Of a stretch of 39,683 bases of DNA, positions 23,900-33,600 are shown in pieces. The stretch lies in the IMG/VR virus record IMGVR_UViG_2886169441_000004; one strand, given 5' to 3'. The DNA comes from a virus. Lineage: Duplodnaviria; Heunggongvirae; Uroviricota; Caudoviricetes. How positions within the stretch are numbered: the stretch's first letter is position 1; the number at the start of each line of letters is the position of its first letter. Position numbers and translations under genes: made by a program. Under the pieces are notes generated by a model. It had not been told where the DNA came from, searched no databases, and was given only the letters and a program-made list of their open reading frames with translations.

Positions 23900-25651
23900 A
23901 TGATTCAGGACGCTTTTGTGCGCCAGCGTGCGCGGCAACTTTACTGGCAGGGTTATCCGCCCGCAGAAATATCACGTCTGATGGGAATAAACCCGAACAC
24001 GATTTATGCGTGGAAAAAACGTGACCAGTGGGATGAAACGCCACCCGTGCAGCGTGTCACGCAGTCCATCGATGCGCGCCTCATCCAGCTTACTGAAAAA
24101 CAGAATAAAACAGGCGGTGACTTTAAGGAAATAGACCTGCTGACCCGGCAGCTTAAAAAGCTGCATGATGGCCAGCCGGATGTGATGGCCGCAGGAAAGA
24201 AAGGCCGGGCGAAAAAACTCAAAAATCATTTCACGCCGGAACAGATTGCCGCACTGCGGGAAAAAATCATCAGCAGGCTGGAGTGGCATCAGCGGGGCTG
24301 GTTTGACTCCCTGACCCTTTGCAGGGAAGCCGGGATACGTAACAGGATGATCCTGAAATCCCGACAGATTGGGGCGACCTGGTATTTTGCACAGGAAGCA
24401 CTGCTGATGGCGCTGCGTGACGATGTGGCGCAACCTTACCAGCGTAACCAGATTTTTTTGTCTGCGTCGCGTCGTCAGGCGTTCCAGTTTAAAAGCATTA
24501 TTCAGAAGGCCGCGGCTGAAGTTGATGTGGAGCTGAAAGGGGGCGATAAAATCATCCTCTCCAACGGCGCAGAGCTGCATTTTCTCGGCACTTCTGCTGC
24601 GTCGGCACAGTCCTATACGGGCAATTTTTATTTTGATGAATTTTTCTGGGTCAGTCGCTTTGCTGAACTGCGCAAGGTGGCTGGCGCTATGGCAACCCTC
24701 AGCGGACTGCGGCGCACCTACTTCTCCACGCCATCCACCGAAACGCACGAGGCATACGCCTACTGGAACGGCGACCGCTGGAACGAGAAAAAGGCCTCGC
24801 ATAAACGCCAGCGTTTTTCTGTGGACTGGAAAACGCTGCATAATGGGCTTATCTGCCCTGACCGGACGTGGCGGCAAATTGTCACGCTGGAAGATGTGGT
24901 TAATCACGGCTGGAAACACACCGATATCGACGAAATTCGTGATGAAAACACCGAAGACGAGTTCCTCAATCTCTATATGTGTGAGTTTGTCCGCGAAGGG
25001 GAATCGGCATTTAACCTGAATATCCTGATTGGCTGCGGTGTTGACGGATACGACGACTGGAAAGACTGGAAACCTTTTGCTCCCCGCCCGATGGGGAATC
25101 GTCCGGTATGGATTGGGTATGACGCAAACGGCAGTAGTGGCAACGGCGACAGCGGCGCTGTGTCCGTGGTGGTTCCTCCGGCTGTTCCTGGCGGCCGTTT
25201 TCGAACGGTGGAGACGCGACGCGTTCAGGGGCTGGAGTTTGAAGAACAGGCCAGAGTCATTGAAGAGTTCACGTGTCGCTACAACGTGGAACACATCGGC
25301 ATTGATGTGACGGGCGGGAACGGGGAGGCTGTTTATCAGATAGTGAAGCGGTTTTTCCCTGCTGCTATTCCGTACACCTTCACGCTGTCATCAAAACGGT
25401 CGCTGGTACTGAAAATGCTGCAAATAATGCGTGCCGGGCGGTGGGAATACGATCGCGCCGAACGCGAGCTGGTCGCGGCCTTTAACGCCGTGCGTAAGGT
25501 GAAAACACCGGGCGGCTTTATCACTTACGAAACGGACCGCGCGAGGGGGATCAGCCACGGCGACCTTGCGTGGGCAACCATGCTTGCTGTCATTAACGAA
25601 CCAATTGGCGGCGAAGGAGAAAACGAGCGTTTCATGGTTATGGAGTTCTGA
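23900..25651 (+). CDS. P: terminase ATPase (large) subunit P
   Basis: 583 aa; assigned by recalled similarity to P2 gpP and divergent position from O; GGGGGAG Shine-Dalgarno. Confidence 0.94.
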   Translation: MIQDAFVRQRARQLYWQGYPPAEISRLMGINPNTIYAWKKRDQWDETPPVQRVTQSIDARLIQLTEKQNKTGGDFKEIDLLTRQLKKLHDGQPDVMAAGKKGRAKKLKNHFTPEQIAALREKIISRLEWHQRGWFDSLTLCREAGIRNRMILKSRQIGATWYFAQEALLMALRDDVAQPYQRNQIFLSASRRQAFQFKSIIQKAAAEVDVELKGGDKIILSNGAELHFLGTSAASAQSYTGNFYFDEFFWVSRFAELRKVAGAMATLSGLRRTYFSTPSTETHEAYAYWNGDRWNEKKASHKRQRFSVDWKTLHNGLICPDRTWRQIVTLEDVVNHGWKHTDIDEIRDENTEDEFLNLYMCEFVREGESAFNLNILIGCGVDGYDDWKDWKPFAPRPMGNRPVWIGYDANGSSGNGDSGAVSVVVPPAVPGGRFRTVETRRVQGLEFEEQARVIEEFTCRYNVEHIGIDVTGGNGEAVYQIVKRFFPAAIPYTFTLSSKRSLVLKMLQIMRAGRWEYDRAERELVAAFNAVRKVKTPGGFITYETDRARGISHGDLAWATMLAVINEPIGGEGENERFMVMEF

Positions 25652-26697
25652 TGAGCAGAAAAAATAAAAAAGTGCGCATGAGTTCACGCATTGATCTCGC
25701 TGATGCGCTCAGGAAAGAATCATCGCTCAGTGCATTCACATTTGATGGTCCTTATCGCCTGACCGGGCATGACCTGCTGGACAATATGTACTGTGCTGAT
25801 AACGGGCGGTGGTATGAAACCCCGGTGGACTGGTACGGTCTGGCAAGAGCAGCCCGGCAAACGTCCTGGCATCAGTCTGCGCTTTACTTTAAGCGCAATG
25901 TATTACTCGGTTGCTACATCCCGCACCCGCTGCTTTCCCGGCAGGATTTCTCGGCGCTGGCGCTGGACTGGTTTGTGTTCGGTAACGCATTCCTTGAGCT
26001 TCGAAGCAATATGCTCGGCGAACCGCTTAAATTACGGCACGCCCTGGCGAAATACATGCGACGCGGAAGCGATCTTGAATCATGGTGGTATGTGCAGGAT
26101 GGCAAGGACGCGTTTCAGTTTCGTCCTGGCAAAGTGTGCCACCTGATGAATCCGGATATTAACCAGGAAATCTACGGCATGCCGGAATATCTTGGCGCAT
26201 TACTCTCGGCCAGCCTTTCTCATTCGGCGGACATGTTCAGAAAACTGTACTACGACAACGGATCCCACGCCGGGTGCATCATCTACATCGGTGCAGCGCA
26301 GGTAAACCGCGAAAGCATGGACTCCCTGAAAGAAACGCTACAGGGGGCACGTGGTGGTGGTGCGTTTAAAAACGTGCTCATTCATGCGCCCAACGGGGGC
26401 AAAGAGGGGGTGCAAATTTTGCCGTTCCAGCAGATCACCGCAAAAGATGAATTCATGAATGTTAAGGCGGCATCCCGTGATGATGTGCTGGCTGCGCACC
26501 GCGTTCCGCCGCAACTGATGGGGGCGATGCCGGGCGAAAAAAGTGCGTTTGGCGATGTGGAGAAGGCAGCGCGGGTTTACGCAATTAACGAGCTGATGCC
26601 CGTTATGGAGGCTATGAAGCACATCAATGACTGGCTTGGCGAAGAGGTGATCCGTTTTAACTCTTATGCTCTTCTTGATGAAAAAACAGCCCCGTGA
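25651..26697 (+). CDS. Q: portal (capsid vertex) protein Q
   Basis: 348 aa; start overlaps the P stop (ATGA); assigned by recalled similarity to P2 gpQ. Confidence 0.93.
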   Translation: MSRKNKKVRMSSRIDLADALRKESSLSAFTFDGPYRLTGHDLLDNMYCADNGRWYETPVDWYGLARAARQTSWHQSALYFKRNVLLGCYIPHPLLSRQDFSALALDWFVFGNAFLELRSNMLGEPLKLRHALAKYMRRGSDLESWWYVQDGKDAFQFRPGKVCHLMNPDINQEIYGMPEYLGALLSASLSHSADMFRKLYYDNGSHAGCIIYIGAAQVNRESMDSLKETLQGARGGGAFKNVLIHAPNGGKEGVQILPFQQITAKDEFMNVKAASRDDVLAAHRVPPQLMGAMPGEKSAFGDVEKAARVYAINELMPVMEAMKHINDWLGEEVIRFNSYALLDEKTAP

Positions 26698-26714
26698 TGG
26701 GGCTGTCCTTTTTA
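26681..26714. terminator. bidirectional rho-independent terminator after Q
   Basis: Stem CAGCCCC / GGGGCTG with loop GTGAT, flanked by an A-run upstream and T-run downstream; also lies after the stop of the convergent gene 26712..27236. Confidence 0.65.
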
Positions 26715-27236
26715 CCAGAGTTGAACCATTTTCTGGGTGCCGTCAGGCTTGAGATTATCAATTTCAGAGAGAACGTAATATTGAATGGCTTCACAAACGG
26801 TGGTGTAGGGTGAATTACCTTCTTTAAGTGGCACGATATTATTATTAACGCGAACCTGTATTTCATCGTTATACATTGCGATCGAAACAGGAGTGTGCAC
26901 GAACGCGACTTCGCCAGGTGTGTCGTCAACCACCGTTTCAATACTAAAAGTCAGTTTTCGCTCATCATTGCTGCCCCGTGCTTTGGGGGTAGCGGCAGGG
27001 ATCTGGGATAAAGGCATTCTGCGAAATCCTTCGGCTGCTTCCAGTCCGCATGAAACGTAATGCTGGCGATTACCGTCGCTATCTGTCCAGGTCTGTGATG
27101 GCAGCTCCAGCGAGATTTCATAAGCATCAACAATGCCCTGGGCAAGGCGTACAAGCGGGGTCAGATCTTCATTGCGGCGAAAGCTCTCCTTTACCTGCTC
27201 CCGTTTTTCTCTTAACTGCTTGTAATTAATGACCAT
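26712..27236 (-). CDS. hypothetical cargo protein, about 174 aa, no recognisable domain
   Basis: ORF 26712..27275; start placed at ATG 27236 (MVINYKQLREK...) with GGAGG at 7 nt spacing; convergent with the portal gene. Confidence 0.6.
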   Translation of the reverse strand: MVINYKQLREKREQVKESFRRNEDLTPLVRLAQGIVDAYEISLELPSQTWTDSDGNRQHYVSCGLEAAEGFRRMPLSQIPAATPKARGSNDERKLTFSIETVVDDTPGEVAFVHTPVSIAMYNDEIQVRVNNNIVPLKEGNSPYTTVCEAIQYYVLSEIDNLKPDGTQKMVQLW

Positions 27237-27336
27237 AAGACAGCCTCCATTGATTTCTTTGCTCGTATTTTGCACTTATGAAGTATGGTCGGCAAGGTGC
27301 CGTATCGCTGACGCGCTTCGCTTGTCTGCTGCTTCG

Positions 27337-27363
27337 CCGGGGCATAAAAAATTTATGCCCCGG
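27337..27363. other. perfect 27-bp palindrome CCGGGGCATAAA-AAA-TTTATGCCCCGG
   Basis: 12-bp arms read from sequence; upstream of the 26712..27236 gene in the non-coding region between the head genes and the cargo operon. Confidence 0.5.
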
Positions 27364-27735
27364 CTCTCCAGCTCCTGTATCAATCAGATAATTTCACGAC
27401 GCCTTCCAGTTTATCGCCACCATCGACGGTCAGACTCTTACGCAATTCCACCGCGTTGACTGCATGTTCTCGCTGCCTCAGTGCGATTTTGACGGCCTTA
27501 CCTTTCACCCCATCAAATCAAAAGCCCTCACGCCTTTTTCATGCTCAGCGTGAGAAATATGGCCATTCTGTTGTGTCTCTGCGACATCGTTCAGGGAATG
27601 CTATTTACCCCCTGAAACGCGGGCTGTTCCCCCGTCACCTGCGCGCAGAAAAAGCGCGTTTTTTTGTGCACGCACGGATCCTTGACGGATCCAGCCGCCA
27701 TGCGGGCCGGAAGGGTAAAAAGTCGTTCAAAAAAA

Positions 27736-27762
27736 TTGTGCAAATTTGTGCACTTTTGTGCA
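27736..27762 (+). promoter_or_regulatory. three TTGTGCA direct repeats at exact 10-bp phasing (candidate operator overlapping a promoter)
   Basis: Repeats at 27736, 27746 and 27756, followed by a TATATT -10-like hexamer at 27777..27782; a fourth TTGTGCA copy at 27664. Confidence 0.4.
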
Positions 27763-27862
27763 GGTAAGCATGCCTATATATTTGACCGTGGCTTGCCTTT
27801 GATGTAGTTTATACGTCACAAAAACCACAAAACGTGGTTATGATTTCTATGAGGGGGTTGAT

Positions 27863-27898
27863 ATGAAAAAAATGTATGATGAATTTGATGGTTTCTAA
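27863..27898 (+). CDS. candidate 11-aa leader peptide (MKKMYDEFDGF)
   Basis: Short ORF with GAGGGGG Shine-Dalgarno at about 5 nt spacing, immediately upstream of a terminator hairpin and the cargo operon. Confidence 0.3.
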   Translation: MKKMYDEFDGF

Positions 27899-27918
27899 GC
27901 TACGTTGACCTCTAATGA

Positions 27919-27946
27919 GGCGGGGATTTGCTCCCCGCCTTTTTTA
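27919..27946 (+). terminator. intrinsic terminator/attenuator hairpin 14 nt upstream of the cargo operon start
   Basis: Stem GGCGGGGA / TCCCCGCC with loop TTTGC, followed by seven T residues. Confidence 0.6.
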
Positions 27947-27959
27947 TGGATGAAATAGG

Positions 27960-28457
27960 ATGAACCCAATAACACTACAAATCATCAGCAATGCTATTGT
28001 TCTGCTTGGCGTTTTGGTTGCCATTGGAACCATTATCTACAATGTGCGTACCGCAAAAAAAACTCAAACGGCCAACTTTCTTTTTGAGAGTCGGCAAGAT
28101 ATGCAATATATAGAGTCATTGCATACCCTGAAACAAGTGCATCGTTCAGGCAAATCATTTCGTTCTTATGTTTTTCCTTGTGATGGTTGCATAATAACAG
28201 ATGAAGAAATGGCCGAGCGTCGAAAATTTCAATATATTTTAAATTTTTACGAGCGAGTTGCTGTAAGTATTCGTGAAGGTATTTATGATGAAAAAATGAT
28301 AAAAAGAACATCTTACACAACAGTTGTAGAGACATATGATATTGCCGAGCCATTAATTAAAGCAATCAGAGAAAGCATTAATTCGGATACTACATATCAA
28401 GAATTCGAATGGTTAGTAAGAAGATGGAAAGCTAATCCTTTACGGAAAAACAAATAA
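27960..28457 (+). CDS. cargo protein 1: 165 aa, N-terminal transmembrane helix plus soluble domain, unknown function
   Basis: Markedly AT-rich ORF; N-terminal hydrophobic stretch ITLQIISNAIVLLGVLVAIGTIIY; no similarity to P2 core genes. Confidence 0.7.
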   Translation: MNPITLQIISNAIVLLGVLVAIGTIIYNVRTAKKTQTANFLFESRQDMQYIESLHTLKQVHRSGKSFRSYVFPCDGCIITDEEMAERRKFQYILNFYERVAVSIREGIYDEKMIKRTSYTTVVETYDIAEPLIKAIRESINSDTTYQEFEWLVRRWKANPLRKNK

Positions 28458-28496
28458 TGTTTTACCCTTTAATTTACAAGTAACACAGGGGGAAGT

Positions 28497-29339
28497 GTGA
28501 CACAGAATCCGTTTTCATTTTATGACTTTTTGGGCTATCTAATTCCAGGTGGGTTATTCCTGTTTATCCTTTTTTTGTTTTCTATTGAAATTAACCCTGT
28601 TTATATAGAAGGTATTCTTAACCATATCCTGAAATATAAAGAAATAATAAGTGTATTTATATATGTGGTATTAATCGTTCTATCATATATTTCAGGTCAC
28701 TTCATATCTATTCTATCATCCTGTTTAATTGAAAAATACATGAACAGTAAACTTGGGTATCCTTCAATTTATCTGTTTTCTAAAAGAAGCTCCCTGAAAA
28801 TAAAACGACATAATACTAAGTTCAGTATAGTTAATTTTATTCGTGGAGTTTTTTTATTTCCTGTATCAGCTTTTGATAAAGCAGAACATCATAAAACCAC
28901 ACTGCATTCTATACTTATTAAAGTCTTTTGGCCGCAAATACGAGATGGTTATATAAATGTTTTTTCTGTATCTACGCTATATCGACGTAAGGGCTTGAGG
29001 GGCGATCTTTTTCGCCTTGCTTATCATTATGTGTATGAACATTCTAAAAATCATCAGGTGAAAATGCAAAACTATGTTGCTTTGTATGGTTTTTGTAGAA
29101 ACATTACATTTGTTTTTCTCGCTTCAGTCTGGTTGCTTATGTTCCTGCTCCTTCTATCCTTTTTAATAGATATAAATATCAGACTGTTACCTTTTTGTTT
29201 TCTTCTCTTGTTTTGTATTGCTGCATCCCGAGTATTTTATTATGGTTTTGTTAAGTATTATCGCCGCTATTCTCTTGAGGTTTTAATGGCATTTGCGGTA
29301 CTTCAGCACGATAAAAAAACTTCGGCAATTTCATCATGA
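28497..29339 (+). CDS. cargo protein 2: 280 aa, polytopic membrane protein (about 4 TM helices around a roughly 110-aa soluble region), unknown function
   Basis: AT-rich ORF 39 bp after cargo protein 1; GTG start with GGGGGAAG upstream; two hydrophobic helices at each end. Confidence 0.68.
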   Translation: MTQNPFSFYDFLGYLIPGGLFLFILFLFSIEINPVYIEGILNHILKYKEIISVFIYVVLIVLSYISGHFISILSSCLIEKYMNSKLGYPSIYLFSKRSSLKIKRHNTKFSIVNFIRGVFLFPVSAFDKAEHHKTTLHSILIKVFWPQIRDGYINVFSVSTLYRRKGLRGDLFRLAYHYVYEHSKNHQVKMQNYVALYGFCRNITFVFLASVWLLMFLLLLSFLIDINIRLLPFCFLLLFCIAASRVFYYGFVKYYRRYSLEVLMAFAVLQHDKKTSAISS

Positions 29340-29422: not shown

Positions 29423-29737
29423 TTATTCTGGGAATAAGGTCTGAATATTCTTTTTTATTTTATAAAAATTGCATTCAACTCCGCTAGGCTGATTATCCTG
29501 GTATGTTTCCTTGATGCTAACGGTATTGAAGGGGAGGTTGTCCTCTGGCCATTCGGCCATCCAGTAGGCAAATGCTGGGTTGCGCTTTATGAGCGCTAGC
29601 CCAGCCAGAAAGGCCGCGCGTTGCGCGCGGCTGCGTTCGGAGGCTGGCAGGCTATCGAGGTAATTGCACGCCTCCTGTTCACTCTTGACGGCGGCGGGCT
29701 TCAGATAGAAACTTATCCGTCTGGTTGGTGTCGTCAT
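29423..29737 (-). CDS. parR: ParR-like centromere-binding protein (ribbon-helix-helix)
   Basis: Start placed at the internal ATG; RRISFYLKPAAVKSEQEACNYLDSLPASERSRAQRAAFLAGLAL resembles the N-terminus of plasmid R1 ParR as I recall it; directly downstream of parM. Confidence 0.78.
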   Translation of the reverse strand: MTTPTRRISFYLKPAAVKSEQEACNYLDSLPASERSRAQRAAFLAGLALIKRNPAFAYWMAEWPEDNLPFNTVSIKETYQDNQPSGVECNFYKIKKNIQTLFPE

Positions 29738-29741
29738 TGGT

Positions 29742-30701
29742 TTACTCCTTGTCCATTGCGTACAGCCCATTAACCAGAGCAAACTGTGGCACCCCGTCCG
29801 CGATGAAAGTCGCATTAACTCCGCAGACTTCGCGGATAGCGGGTGCCACAATCTCCGCCCCTCCACCGACAACCATCACCCGCCCGTAACCCGAAAAAAC
29901 CGCCAGCGCGCGGATCACGCGTTGTTTCAGTGTTTCTTCCTTTTCACGAATAACCGCCATCAGGCTGGCGTAATGCGCGTCATTGTGGATGTGCTGGCGC
30001 AGCCAGGCTTCATCATGGCGATGTTCGATAATGGTATTGGCGATGTGGTGACTGGTGCGCATACCGTTAGTGGCCATCACCGACAGTACGGCATCGGCCA
30101 TCAGGGAAACGCCTACGTGTGGATCGCAAAACACCTGGCTGATACCTGCCAGTTGCCCTTGAACCTTTGCCACATCCAGCGTGGTTCCGCCTAAATCCAC
30201 AATCAGCAGGGATTCAAACGGACTCATGTCAGCCAGTGCTTTAAAGCCAGCCGGAATGGATTCAGGCATAACCCGCACGTTACGGATAGTGAATGCTTCG
30301 CCGTTCTGGTATTCCACCGGGCGCATAACGTTCGCTTTTTTGCGGTTGATGTTGGCCATGTCCGGCTGTGCGTTTGTGTCGAAATACTCGCTCAGTGGCA
30401 GGGTGACAACCACATCCACCTCCTGTGGCGTGATGCCTGATTTGACCAGCGCGTGATGAATGGCGATTACATTCACATCGCTGTACTGGTATTGCGTGTC
30501 GGTCGTCTGGACAAAGCGATCGCTAACCGGATCAAAACCATAGCGCACGCCATCAAGCATGTAGTTCGCGGGCTGCATGCCACCGAACGGCGCAGACCAT
30601 TCCGACTTGAAGCTGTTCGGGCTGATGGCGTTGCGGCGTTCGCCATTCTCAGTCCATGCCAGCTTGATGTTGGTGGAGCCGTCGTCGATACAAATTTTCA
30701 T
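29742..30701 (-). CDS. parM: ParM/StbA-like actin-type segregation ATPase
   Basis: 319 aa; N-terminal phosphate-1 motif MKICIDDGSTNIKLAW and later blocks (ISPNSFK, QYSDVNVIAIHHAL, IVDLGGTTLD) resemble R1 ParM. Confidence 0.88.
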   Translation of the reverse strand: MKICIDDGSTNIKLAWTENGERRNAISPNSFKSEWSAPFGGMQPANYMLDGVRYGFDPVSDRFVQTTDTQYQYSDVNVIAIHHALVKSGITPQEVDVVVTLPLSEYFDTNAQPDMANINRKKANVMRPVEYQNGEAFTIRNVRVMPESIPAGFKALADMSPFESLLIVDLGGTTLDVAKVQGQLAGISQVFCDPHVGVSLMADAVLSVMATNGMRTSHHIANTIIEHRHDEAWLRQHIHNDAHYASLMAVIREKEETLKQRVIRALAVFSGYGRVMVVGGGAEIVAPAIREVCGVNATFIADGVPQFALVNGLYAMDKE

Positions 30702-30845: not shown

Positions 30846-33600
30846 TTCCACTGGTCAGGCCACCCCGCAGCAGGTCTGCTTTGCGGCTGGCGCGTTCAGT
30901 GGTTTCACTGATTCTCTGTGCGTGCTCTGCGTCGCGGATGGCGCGCAGCATGTCAGAAAGCACGGTAACGGGTGTTTTCATGGTGTTCTGGCCCTGCTGA
31001 AGTGTGGATGCCAGGCGTGCGGCGGCTTCAGGGTCTGATGCCCCCAGCTGTGCCAGATAGCTGGCGACCGGGTTATGGCGGATCTCCGTGCTGCTTACGC
31101 CATGATTACGGCTCAGGCGCTGCCAGAGCTGCGTGATTCGGCTGTCCGGGCGGGTATCCGGTTTGCGTACAATTTCAAATCCCTGCGGTGCAATGATGCT
31201 GCCGTCAACGTACAGACTGCCGCCCCGTAACAGGTGCTGCATCTGTTGTTCACCGATATGCAGGCCGAGAGATTCAGCAGACTCCCGCCATTCTTTAGCG
31301 AGTAATTCGTGGTTATCAGGCAAAGGCCGCTGCTGTTTGCGGCTCTGTGTCCAGCTCTGCATTTCATCGCTGCTGTTTTTTGCCTGTTTGTCACGAAGCG
31401 AACGCATCAGCGCCCGGCGTTCGTGTCGTTTCAGTGAGCGCATCCATTCGTTCACTTCAACGCCGTCAGGGAGCTGCGGCCACGGTGCTGGCCGTTCTTC
31501 CGGCTGTTCTGTCCCGTTGTTGTCCGTTTCCTGTACACGGGGACAGTTATTGCCACGAGTCCAAGGGGCGGCAGGGCCGCCCTGAAGGTCAAAACCATTT
31601 TCGCGGGCGCTGTCTTCCGCTTCCGGTTTACGTCTTACCAGCTTCCAGTTATCCGGATGCGTGCACACACGGGAGGATTCCCCGATGAGTGGTGACCAGA
31701 TCCCGTAAATCTGTACGCTCTGTTCGCCGTAATCGTTCAGCTCATCTGCGAGGTCGTAGGCGGTGCGAATCAGGTAGTCCTTGCGTGGAACAAGCACGCC
31801 ACCCTGTTTTTCAATGTAGGTGGCAAAACACCCGGCATCGGCGGCAGCGAGTACCGCATCCATTGCATCATCTTTCAGCCGTTGCGGGCCTTCCGGATTG
31901 CGTGCCATCTGGCTGGCAAGGCGGCGCAGTTCACGCCACACCTGACGGGAGGGGATGCCAAAGAACTGGAACTGACGGACCCGGTGAAGGCGCGCCCAGC
32001 CGATGGCGCGCTCCACGCTCTCGGCCATTGATTTTCCGGTTTCGTGGTCCACGCGTGGCTTGCCCGTTTTCGGGTCGATGCCATCCACGGCGCGGCTGTC
32101 CAGGTTCTTTCCGATGTAGGTGGCGATGTAGCTGGTTGGCGTGCCTTTTGAGCCGTCGACATACTCCACCTTAAAGCGCGGAGTAATATCATTGCCCAGC
32201 TCGTGGCGGTCTTCCTGAATGGCAATATCGCGGGTATGGGACACAATGGTGTCGATTTCTTCCGGATGTGCAAAGACCATCATATGCCAGTGCACGGTGC
32301 CGTCATGATGAGGCTCCACCGTGCGGATGCCATACCAGCGCAGGCCGTCGCGGTTCAGTTTTTTGCGGACCGCCGCAAAAAACGTGTTAACCAGGTAATC
32401 GCTGGAGTCGCGCATTGTGGCCCCGTTCCATTTGGGATTCGGATGACCGTTCTCCGTTGTGGCGTGGTATTTTGACGGGCAGGTGACAGTCAGAAACACC
32501 GCTTTGTCGCCACGGGCTTCGGCCAGAAGTTCCAGTCCCTTCATGGTGGCCATCATTTCTGCCTTACGGTGAACCGGGTTACTTACTCCCGCGTAATACA
32601 CTGTCTCGAGATCAATCGTGAACCCGTCTTCATTTTCCAGCATGAAACTTTTCAGGAAATCGCGTGTTTTCTCGCGCTGTGCGCGAAACTCGCTTAACGC
32701 GTCCTGGCTCAGATAGGGTGATGTTTTTCTGGAAACCAGACAGGCGGCGCGGAGTTGTTCTTCTCTCCACTCGCAACGTAACAGCCACAGTTTGCGTTTC
32801 CACCATTCCGCACAGGTCAGGCGAAGGATTGCGCCCGGCAGCAGCTCCGTGTCCGGTTCGTTCCTCCGGTCTTTGTCTGTTGTCAGTGCGTCATAATGTG
32901 GAGGCATGGCGTGCAGGTGTAACGCCATGCGGGCCAGCATCTGATACGCCTTCAGGGTTACATCCATGGTCAGCTCGCCATCGGTCGCGCCAAAGCCATC
33001 GCAGAGTTTTTCGAAGGTGCTGCTGAACATCGCCGCCGTCATGGTGGCCAGCGTCTGTATCTGGTGTTTGTTGAGCTGCGGCAGGTAAAGCAAATCGTCC
33101 AGGCGTTCGCGTCCGGCAAGGGAGCGATAACCCGGTGTCAGCCAGCGTCCGTCAGTGCTATCCAGACGTTCGAATATTTTGCGCAGGGTTCCGCGTGCAT
33201 AGCGTTCCGCCTGCCAGCTCTTTTTGCCTTTCCGGCGATCGGCTTCCTGTTTTTTGCGCAGGAAGGAGAGGTGGCGAATAAGCGGATCGCGCAGATAGGA
33301 CGGCAGCAGGCGCAGCGAGGCCATGGCTTCATCCACCGCGCCACGTGCCTGTTTTCTGGCGTCTCCTGCCAGTGTGATGGTTTTGTCCTGTTTTTCCTGT
33401 GCGTCCAGGCTTTTATTAATCAGGTTGCCCAGCGGCGTGGCTGAGAACGCCGCATCAGCCATTTCCTGGCGGCGCTCGTTCTCTGCCCGGTAGGCATCCA
33501 GCCAGGAGGAAAGCGCGGATTCAGGAGCGGGGATCCCCGTTCCTTCACGCCCCACTGCGTGGCGCGGTTGTTGCCAGTCCCTGAGGTACTCTGCCGTCAT
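30778..33600 (-). CDS. A: replication initiation endonuclease A (rolling-circle, HUH-type)
   Basis: 940 aa; the VEPHHDGTVHWHMMVF block matches the P2 gpA metal-binding motif; C-terminal region longer than P2 A. Confidence 0.92.
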   Translation of the reverse strand: MTAEYLRDWQQPRHAVGREGTGIPAPESALSSWLDAYRAENERRQEMADAAFSATPLGNLINKSLDAQEKQDKTITLAGDARKQARGAVDEAMASLRLLPSYLRDPLIRHLSFLRKKQEADRRKGKKSWQAERYARGTLRKIFERLDSTDGRWLTPGYRSLAGRERLDDLLYLPQLNKHQIQTLATMTAAMFSSTFEKLCDGFGATDGELTMDVTLKAYQMLARMALHLHAMPPHYDALTTDKDRRNEPDTELLPGAILRLTCAEWWKRKLWLLRCEWREEQLRAACLVSRKTSPYLSQDALSEFRAQREKTRDFLKSFMLENEDGFTIDLETVYYAGVSNPVHRKAEMMATMKGLELLAEARGDKAVFLTVTCPSKYHATTENGHPNPKWNGATMRDSSDYLVNTFFAAVRKKLNRDGLRWYGIRTVEPHHDGTVHWHMMVFAHPEEIDTIVSHTRDIAIQEDRHELGNDITPRFKVEYVDGSKGTPTSYIATYIGKNLDSRAVDGIDPKTGKPRVDHETGKSMAESVERAIGWARLHRVRQFQFFGIPSRQVWRELRRLASQMARNPEGPQRLKDDAMDAVLAAADAGCFATYIEKQGGVLVPRKDYLIRTAYDLADELNDYGEQSVQIYGIWSPLIGESSRVCTHPDNWKLVRRKPEAEDSARENGFDLQGGPAAPWTRGNNCPRVQETDNNGTEQPEERPAPWPQLPDGVEVNEWMRSLKRHERRALMRSLRDKQAKNSSDEMQSWTQSRKQQRPLPDNHELLAKEWRESAESLGLHIGEQQMQHLLRGGSLYVDGSIIAPQGFEIVRKPDTRPDSRITQLWQRLSRNHGVSSTEIRHNPVASYLAQLGASDPEAAARLASTLQQGQNTMKTPVTVLSDMLRAIRDAEHAQRISETTERASRKADLLRGGLTSGNKKQTETGLTNPVNEQKTRSDI

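Follow-up and report, generated by a model that had tools for sequence, protein, structure and literature searches.

We analyzed the DNA in front of a two-gene cargo operon in a P88-like (Xuanwuvirus, P2-family) prophage of Escherichia coli ST131, using a viral sequence of 39,683 nucleotides (nt; IMG/VR record IMGVR_UViG_2886169441_000004), the whole of which is designated as the window. The original prediction had read positions 27664–27959 as one regulatory leader, in which TTGTGCA repeats bind a repressor or an activator of the cargo, and a short open reading frame (ORF) and an intrinsic terminator allow conditional read-through. Our comparative analysis suggests that the region is probably the junction of two separately inherited modules: the repeats of the cohesive-end site (cos), left of 27762, and the leader of the cargo, right of it. 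Judging from the aligned loci, the repeats are almost certainly linked to cos and not to the cargo. The leader carries an 11-codon gene and an intrinsic terminator that accompany the first cargo gene, which encodes a DUF4760 protein, across many genera.

All four copies of TTGTGCA are present on the + strand at the predicted positions (27664, 27736, 27746, and 27756). The heptamer is not enriched over the window as a whole (10 copies vs. 10.06 expected), and the chance expectation for three copies in exact 10-bp phase is about 1.6e-7. P88 and its relatives with other cargo share only 27304–27762 with the window, at 93–95% identity, and the match stops exactly at 27762, which is both the last base of the third distal repeat and the end of the conserved cos block. 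A scan of IMG/VR for the triple repeat gave at least 122 matches; in a set of 123 flanks, made up of the listed matches and the window, a cos-like TCCCCCG occurs within 160 nt upstream of the triple repeat in 114. The IMG/VR flanks that were inspected have a P2-like cos about 98 nt before the triple repeat; between the two lie a hairpin and T run, then TGTGCA, then some 65 nt of spacer. Immediately after the third repeat, at least 36 unrelated sequence classes were found, many of which begin with the terminator of a convergent gene. Cassettes of DUF4760 occur both with and without the repeats: a search for TTGTGCA arrays around related cargo loci, which had been proposed as a check of the earlier reading, found none at loci L258 and L276–L284 or at the chromosomal DUF4760 loci. 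The repeats thus travel with cos, and they are not co-inherited with the cargo promoter or gene.

The cos block and its repeats

The cos block of the window contains the following elements.

27304–27762: conserved cos block of P88-like phages, with variable (hotspot) DNA on both sides
27621–27639: putative 19-nt cohesive-end site (cosN), assigned by homology; the − strand reads GGTGACGGGGGAACAGCCC
27641–27665, + strand: hairpin GCGCGC-AGAAAAA-GCGCG and T run beside cos, matching the hairpin within the 55-bp P2/P4 core
27664–27670, + strand: cos-proximal TTGTGCA, with GTGCA at +26 from the end of the putative cos (27639)
27736–27762, + strand: three distal TTGTGCA in 10-bp phase, with GTGCA at +98, +108, and +118 from cos, preceded by an A7 tract

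The order is therefore a 19-nt cos, a hairpin with a T run, TTGTGCA, a variable spacer, and three TTGTGCA on one face of the helix. An automated search for the P2 cos with up to three mismatches gave no match, and the site was placed by comparing architecture. When aligned manually, 27621–27639 is identical to the P2 cos (GGCGAGGCGGGGAAAGCAC) at 13 of the 19 positions, and intermediate lineages (CTTGCTCCCCCGCCTCGCC) connect the two. The putative cos also resembles that of phiRSA1, GGTGAGGCGGGG... (PMC5694545). As expected of a P2-family cos region, the GC-rich 19-nt sequence lies downstream of the portal gene Q, with homologues of both Q and the large terminase subunit gene P directly upstream of the cos region, and the core architecture seen in P2, 186, and P4 (cos, hairpin, T run, and NTGCA) is present.

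The cos site of P2 and P4 has been described as a 55-bp core (Ziermann & Calendar 1990, as cited in PMC9122126 and PMC5694545). Like this core, the window has a GC-rich 19-nt cos near the portal gene, then a hairpin and T run with NTGCA beside them, all of which the satellite shares; the equivalent of the cos-proximal copy, ATGCA at +24, sits within the 55-bp core. The window differs in that its motif is GTGCA, not ATGCA, and in that three distal copies lie outside the core. We did not find the distal copies described in the searchable literature, which leaves out the 1990 study of the core. The spacer of the window also contains two GGATCC hexamers 5 nt apart (27676–27692), which form an inverted repeat and are not conserved in sister lineages.

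A family-wide NTGCA quartet

Between sub-lineages, the repeats are 85–97% identical, whereas identity falls to 61–65% in the spacer and to 61–70% in the spacer and hairpin together. In P2, read in the same orientation, cos is followed by the hairpin, TTTT, AATGCAC, a spacer, TTAATGCA, CATGCA, TTGAATGCA, and the mapped old-tin transcript starts, which places ATGCA at +24, +96, +106, and +118 from cos. Phage 186 carries an equivalent ATGCA array at matching offsets, and P4 and 12 P4-like satellites have ATGCA at +24, +96, +106, and +119. The DNA between the ATGCA sites is unrelated in P2 and P4, and helper and satellite have only the cos region in common (PMC9122126). The ATGCA-type repeats are thus shared with satellites packaged by the same terminase (P4 and its 12 relatives); no GTGCA-type satellite was found.

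An unbiased collection of cos regions was made with the pattern CCCCGCCTCGCC, 15–25 nt, and TTTT, with the repeat motif left unspecified, and yielded 111 unique P2-type regions. The 5-mer that follows the T run is ATGCA in 74 of them and GTGCA in 14. Copies of the motif 85–135 nt after cos were then counted by class.

ATGCA class (74 regions): mean of 2.38 copies; control intervals, 0.04–0.05; other class, 0.03
GTGCA class (14 regions): mean of 1.57 copies; control intervals, 0; other class, 0.14

The distal copies peak sharply at 95–99, 105–109, and 115–119 nt after cos. In a third class, GATGCA, the cos-proximal and distal copies agree likewise, so that the cos-proximal and the three distal copies switch motif class together between lineages. 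Because the motif classes agree, the offsets are fixed, the array is shared by P2, 186, and P4, and it is conserved regardless of the neighboring genes, we read the four TTGTGCA as the likely P88-lineage version of a family-wide quartet of packaging signals; a function in packaging is, in our estimate, reasonably probable. The phage terminase, probably through its small subunit gpM, would recognize the copies or assemble on them. The copies may be compared with the R sites of lambda cosB, which are bound by the small terminase subunit. In both systems, a group of short repeats is found to one side of the cleavage site, and the repeats of the P2 family keep a constant distance from that site and are conserved whatever genes adjoin.

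Several observations weigh against the packaging reading. Identity to the gpM of the window is 46–100% in the GTGCA class and 33–39% in the ATGCA class, but the portal Q and the large terminase subunit P show the same trend, which means that phylogeny could explain why gpM tracks the motif class. None of the phage records checked for ends at the putative cos ends there, and its position comes from homology alone. Finally, the third repeat of P2 overlaps the −35 element of the mapped old promoter, and a second role in transcription is possible.

That overlap, together with phased A/T tracts that could bend DNA, would suit repeats that act not as a packaging site but as a backbone promoter or bending element driving or modulating outward transcription into the hotspot, as a general equivalent of the P2 old promoter. 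We consider this unlikely, given that the cargo is convergent at many P88-type loci, where a terminator adjoins the third repeat, 186 has no outward-facing gene, the satellite P4 retains the spacing beside psu, and the cos-proximal copy lies inside the packaging core. The arrangement in the window resembles the P2 old-tin promoter in that an outward cargo promoter lies about 150 bp from cos on the repeat side (starts at 33424 and 33426 of NC_001895). Unlike in P2, the −35 element of the window lies 20 nt beyond the repeats and belongs to the cassette, not to the backbone.

The proposal that the TTGTGCA array is an operator of the cargo promoter, forming one control unit with the leader ORF and hairpin as a conditional attenuator, is quite improbable. 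The repeats do end only 20 nt upstream of the −35 element, the overlap in P2 is compatible with it, and both the leader ORF and the terminator exist and are conserved. However, the repeats are inherited with cos and face the many right flanks described above, many of which are convergent; both 186 and P4 have the array without an outward-facing gene (in 186, the neighboring gene orf97 is convergent and is separated from the repeats by terminator t95b); cassettes of DUF4760 that are not in P88 phages have no repeats, yet keep the promoter and leader; and Pfam, PADLOC, and phrog searches of the cargo genes found no cognate regulator in the cassette.

Returning to the packaging reading, it implies that the repeats beside the P2-like defense hotspot belong to the packaging signal and should not be cloned or read as a 'native promoter' of the cargo. 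A quartet at fixed positions, common to helper and satellite, would also give a testable definition of an extended P2/P4 packaging signal, useful for the design of P2/P4 cosmids and transducing particles; P2 cosmid transduction increases more than 1000-fold with longer cos flanks (PMC9594776). One DUF4760 locus, L250 (IMGVR_UViG_3300007747_000080), has a natural deletion equivalent to about 27703–27789, which removes all three distal repeats and the −35 element, and keeps cos, the leader, and DUF4760.

A peptide gene and a terminator in front of DUF4760

The right-hand module was compared across homologues of the DUF4760 protein, namely 39 loci in IMG/VR (74–100% identity), 19 loci in a collection of one genome per species (32–88% identity), and further loci in Providencia, in Entomohabitans (chromosomal, at a non-phage site), and on one metagenome contig, with the upstream DNA examined in all. 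A micro-ORF followed by a terminator lies upstream of DUF4760 at 37 of the 39 IMG/VR loci, in about 17 of the 19 species genomes, and in Providencia, Entomohabitans, and the metagenome contig. The order of peptide, terminator, and DUF4760 is kept across many genera, down to about 40% identity of the DUF4760 protein. The leader of the window contains the following elements.

27782–27810, + strand: predicted cassette promoter, −35 TTGACC (27782–27787), 17-nt spacer, −10 TAGTTT (27805–27810)
27823–27839, + strand: hairpin AACCAC-AAAAC-GTGGTT of the 5' untranslated region
27851–27857, + strand: Shine-Dalgarno sequence GAGGGGG of the micro-ORF (GGAGG or GGGGG in all variants)
27863–27898, + strand: micro-ORF MKKMYDEFDGF and stop
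27889–27902, + strand: small hairpin whose loop holds the stop codon and whose stem pairs the D-G codons with the 4 nt that follow it
27904–27913, + strand: GTTGACCTCT, complementary to the Shine-Dalgarno region of the micro-ORF
27917–27945, + strand: intrinsic terminator, with a hairpin at 27917–27941 (10 pairs, 7 of them G-C; 5-nt loop) and T6 at 27940–27945

The predicted short ORF was confirmed, with 11 sense codons, TAA, and a strong Shine-Dalgarno sequence 5 nt before ATG; the gene is unannotated. The hairpin with its T tail is likewise present, and the tail ends 14 nt before the ATG at 27960, but it has six Ts, not seven. The −10-like TATATT exists at 27777–27782, adjoining the repeats; however, it is not conserved across the cassettes and is not the best −10, as 14 of the 15 cassettes tested share another promoter, TTGACn-N16–18 (17 in 12)-TA(A/G)TTT, from which a transcript start near 27817 is predicted. 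Another candidate called by the promoter scan, GTCACA-18-TATGAT (27815–27844), overlaps the 5' hairpin, is not conserved, and was rejected. The 5' hairpin recurs at the same place elsewhere with other stems (GACTAC/GTAGTC, TTCAC/GTGAA, and GACGAC/GTCGTC). In most cassettes, a palindrome ATTACC-N4/5-GGTAAT covers the promoter spacer and −10 (seen in L256, L257, L261, L267, L389, L391, L393, and L406, with a perfect GTTACC-TTAA-GGTAAC in L406); it is degenerate in the window (27788–27810, CTTGCCTTTGATGTAG) and looks like an operator for a dimeric regulator.

The micro-ORF is constrained at the level of the peptide. The 29 distinct DUF4760-linked variants keep ..D-E-[FY]-[DE]-G-[FL]-stop, and M[KRT][KRN]x[FYHC]DEFDGF is the form of most. 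The third positions of all six D-E-F-D-G-F codons vary synonymously with the first and second positions invariant, amino acid replacements are few and conservative, and each of the three stop codons is used. Other leader peptides are MEAMFDEYDWF, MNSIQDEYDWF, MQLDEYDGF, MDENDGF, MVNYIRDEFEGF, and MRYSDEYEGL. Constraint is extreme at the C-terminus, N-termini differ in length, and the peptide is more conserved than the DUF4760 protein (down to about 40% identity). Because the codon changes are synonymous at all six third positions, the peptide is very likely translated and under selection.

The terminator is conserved as an element. Seven terminator-like sites were found in 26600–28600, vs. 2.0 ± 1.5 in shuffled sequences, and all 21 homologous leaders have a terminator 18–26 nt after the micro-ORF stop, mostly 14–21 nt before the DUF4760 start; in Pantoea, Litchfieldella, and Yersinia, unrelated stem sequences occur at similar spacing. 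Because the terminator sits between the peptide gene and DUF4760, any transcript reaching the latter must cross it. The terminator would, with good probability, limit downstream expression, and a fixed brake on transcription is likely. Right after the terminator, T5–6 (A/G/C)TGGA(T), at 27946–27951 in the window, is nearly invariant across the cassettes and may be a weak ribosome-binding site of DUF4760, 9–15 nt before the start. At locus L253, an insertion sequence (372-amino-acid transposase, from position 1568 onward) lies inside the terminator loop and splits the micro-ORF from DUF4760.

From these elements, the following course can be proposed. The sigma-70 promoter TTGACC-17-TAGTTT would fire, the 5' hairpin would stabilize the RNA, and the micro-ORF would be translated efficiently into an acidic 11-codon peptide ending in DEFDGF. 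Most transcripts would stop at 27945 as RNAs of about 130 nt that code for nothing but the peptide, and a minority would read through into DUF4760, with its weak ribosome-binding site, and gene 2. The outcome would be a high ratio of peptide to membrane protein.

Related micro-ORFs are found far from DUF4760. A codon-level scan of IMG/VR for DEFDGF-stop gave at least 120 loci, vs. 1 for the permuted control DFDEGF-stop. In epsilon15-like phages, ORFs of 8 amino acids (MKDEFDGF or VNDEFDGF, and MKDEFDRF in epsilon15 itself) overlap the end of an N4-gp49-family gene at its stop codon; a palindrome and a terminator come next, and the gene beyond is convergent. In lambdoid phages, M[LF]DEFDGF or MLDEFEGFDEFDGF lies just downstream of the antiterminator gene Q; on a T4-like contig, a 21-amino-acid ORF ending in FDEFDGF lies upstream of gp47/gp46 homologues; and other P88-type cargo has a DEFDGF-type ORF after a ClpX-zinc-finger-like gene (L024 and L078). 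That unrelated phages carry this peptide suggests that they have a target in common. We favor a trans-acting product, which might serve DUF4760 as a partner or antidote, because the stand-alone copies have nothing downstream to regulate and because duplicated motifs occur. The searchable literature has no mention of 'DEFDGF' as a peptide. Acidic C-terminal tails with an aromatic last residue are known from E. coli SSB (..DFDDDIPF), T7 gp2.5 and gp4, and RB69 polymerase (..LFDMFDF); as a lead only, these resemble the micro-peptides in an acidic stretch and a terminal Phe with a free carboxylate, but the order of residues differs from DEFDGF. Among the loci recorded are L288, L294, L322, and L387:2306–2332 (epsilon15-like), L289, L297, and L312 (lambdoid), and L298 and L328 (T4-like); the micro-ORFs elsewhere end in DEFDGF (or DEFDRF or DEFEGF), usually followed by a hairpin or terminator.

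RNA structure was compared by means of an RNAalifold consensus and minimum-energy folds of 15 leader variants. The consensus contains two helices, the terminator (one compensatory pair) and the small stop-codon hairpin, which has C-G to U-A compensatory changes at two pairs and of which more variants were seen. The minimum-energy fold of 14 of the 15 variants has a long-range stem between the Shine-Dalgarno region and a conserved ACCUCU just after the stop, but its covariation is weak (−10.9 vs. −10.1 kcal/mol for mismatched partners), and because there is almost none, we do not count the stem as proven. Neither the consensus nor the 15 minimum-energy folds contain an antiterminator helix that excludes the terminator. 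A search of Rfam 15 at a permissive E-value gave only chance-level matches, the best being SorX (E = 0.067; 19.3 bits vs. a threshold of 46.6).

These results bear on the proposed attenuation, of which one part holds: the leader ORF and intrinsic terminator are kept with DUF4760 across many genera. As in the trp, his, phe, and pyrBI attenuators, a short translated ORF with a ribosome-binding site is followed by an intrinsic terminator and then by the first structural gene. With no helix to rival the terminator, the leader lacks what defines classical attenuation. The leader also differs from those attenuators in lacking a run of regulatory codons (D, E, and G are among the conserved positions), in the distance from the ORF stop to the stem (18 nt), and in being conserved at the peptide level across genera.

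The trans reading is opposed by two considerations: the conserved stem that sequesters the Shine-Dalgarno sequence, the stop-codon hairpin, and a stop-to-terminator distance fixed at 18–21 nt fit a role in cis better, and peptides of 7–11 residues are usually short-lived. Conditional read-through by way of the nascent peptide is a possibility, though a doubtful one. The micro-ORF would in that case be a sensor in cis, in which nascent ..DEFDGF arrests the ribosome near the stop under some condition (a metabolite, translation stress, or infection), remodels the leader, and permits read-through; we hold this to be tentative. The strict C-terminus behind an N-terminus of variable length, the stop codon in the loop of a covarying hairpin, the stem in 14 of 15 variants, the near-constant spacing, and the invariable position of the terminator between the peptide gene and DUF4760 all agree with it. 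The leader resembles the arrest leaders TnaC, SpeFL, ToiL, ErmL, and CatL in having a very short peptide that is conserved at the amino acid level, with a strict C-terminus, upstream of a regulated, possibly toxic operon. The known arrest leaders act either via Rho-dependent termination or by making a sequestered ribosome-binding site accessible. By the usual size of the footprint, the edge of a ribosome at the stop codon would fall about 8–11 nt short of the terminator stem and would not reach it; only a 4-bp CCUC:GAGG pairing is possible in place of a terminator-excluding helix. In addition, unlike the arrest leaders, DEFDGF is also a stand-alone micro-gene at the ends of operons, where no downstream gene is left to control, and the doubling of the motif in MLDEFEGFDEFDGF and similar cases is more suggestive of binding epitopes.

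That the leader of about 130 nt is mainly a regulatory small RNA, with the ORF conserved through constraints on the RNA, is highly unlikely: the unit is compact from promoter to terminator and has the conserved ACCUCU and hairpins, but the synonymous third positions beside invariant first and second ones in all six codons point to selection on the peptide, the motif recurs in unrelated RNA contexts, and Rfam has no match.

A broader synthesis, rather doubtful in our view, is that DEFDGF marks a widespread, undescribed family of trans-acting phage micro-peptides that are obligate partners (antidotes or ligands) of DUF4760, and that the NTGCA quartet is a specificity determinant of terminases. 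If true, epsilon15-like, lambdoid, and T4-like phages would carry their stand-alone copies as counter-measures or mimics, and the quartet (+24, +96, +106, and +118) would determine the specificity of P2-family terminases, which would account for the poor packaging by the 55-bp core alone.

The cargo genes and the hotspot

The genes around the junction are as follows.

23900–25651, in + strand order: large terminase subunit P
25651–26697, in + strand order: portal Q, followed by its terminator
26712–27236, − strand: 174-amino-acid ORF within a variable insert, phrog_5091
27960–28457, + strand: first cargo gene, DUF4760 protein with an N-terminal transmembrane helix (Pfam PF15956, E = 1.8e-34)
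28497–29339, + strand: second cargo gene, 280 amino acids, with several hydrophobic, probably membrane-spanning stretches (phrog_12528)

The DUF4760 protein is predicted to be membrane-anchored, and its predicted fold is most like the EP domain found in EDS1, PAD4, and SAG101, which are immune proteins of plants. PADLOC has no model for DUF4760, which we met in the searchable literature only in an unrelated context and in a supplementary catalogue. Gene 2 has a weak match to Csx27 (1.1e-5). It lies beside DUF4760 in this E. coli variant only and is absent from every other DUF4760 locus examined; it is thus outside the conserved unit of peptide, terminator, and DUF4760.

The defense hotspot of P2-like phages is the cos-proximal region between gpA and gpQ, and exactly this set of cargo proteins is one of the P2 hotspot arrangements in supplementary file 6 (Rousset et al. 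2022). Positions 26650–28000 are 100% identical to E. coli ST131 genomes (e.g., EC958 and JJ1886) and to phage vB_EcoM-569R5, and the same sequence covers at least 80% of this interval in 397 of 5426 complete genomes. The unit of peptide, terminator, and DUF4760 is among the commonest P2 hotspot cargoes in E. coli.

A second variable segment (26707–27303), from the portal terminator to the cos block, carries the 174-amino-acid ORF on the − strand, for which Pfam and PADLOC searches gave no match; P88 lacks this segment, and its cos block comes directly after Q. On the other side of the cargo, after 29339, come convergent genes resembling those of plasmid partition, and the replication gene. 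The former, ParM/StbA-like and Plasmid_stab_B genes, lie within the prophage at 29423–30701, between the cargo and the replication gene, and P88 is arranged alike for the partition genes.

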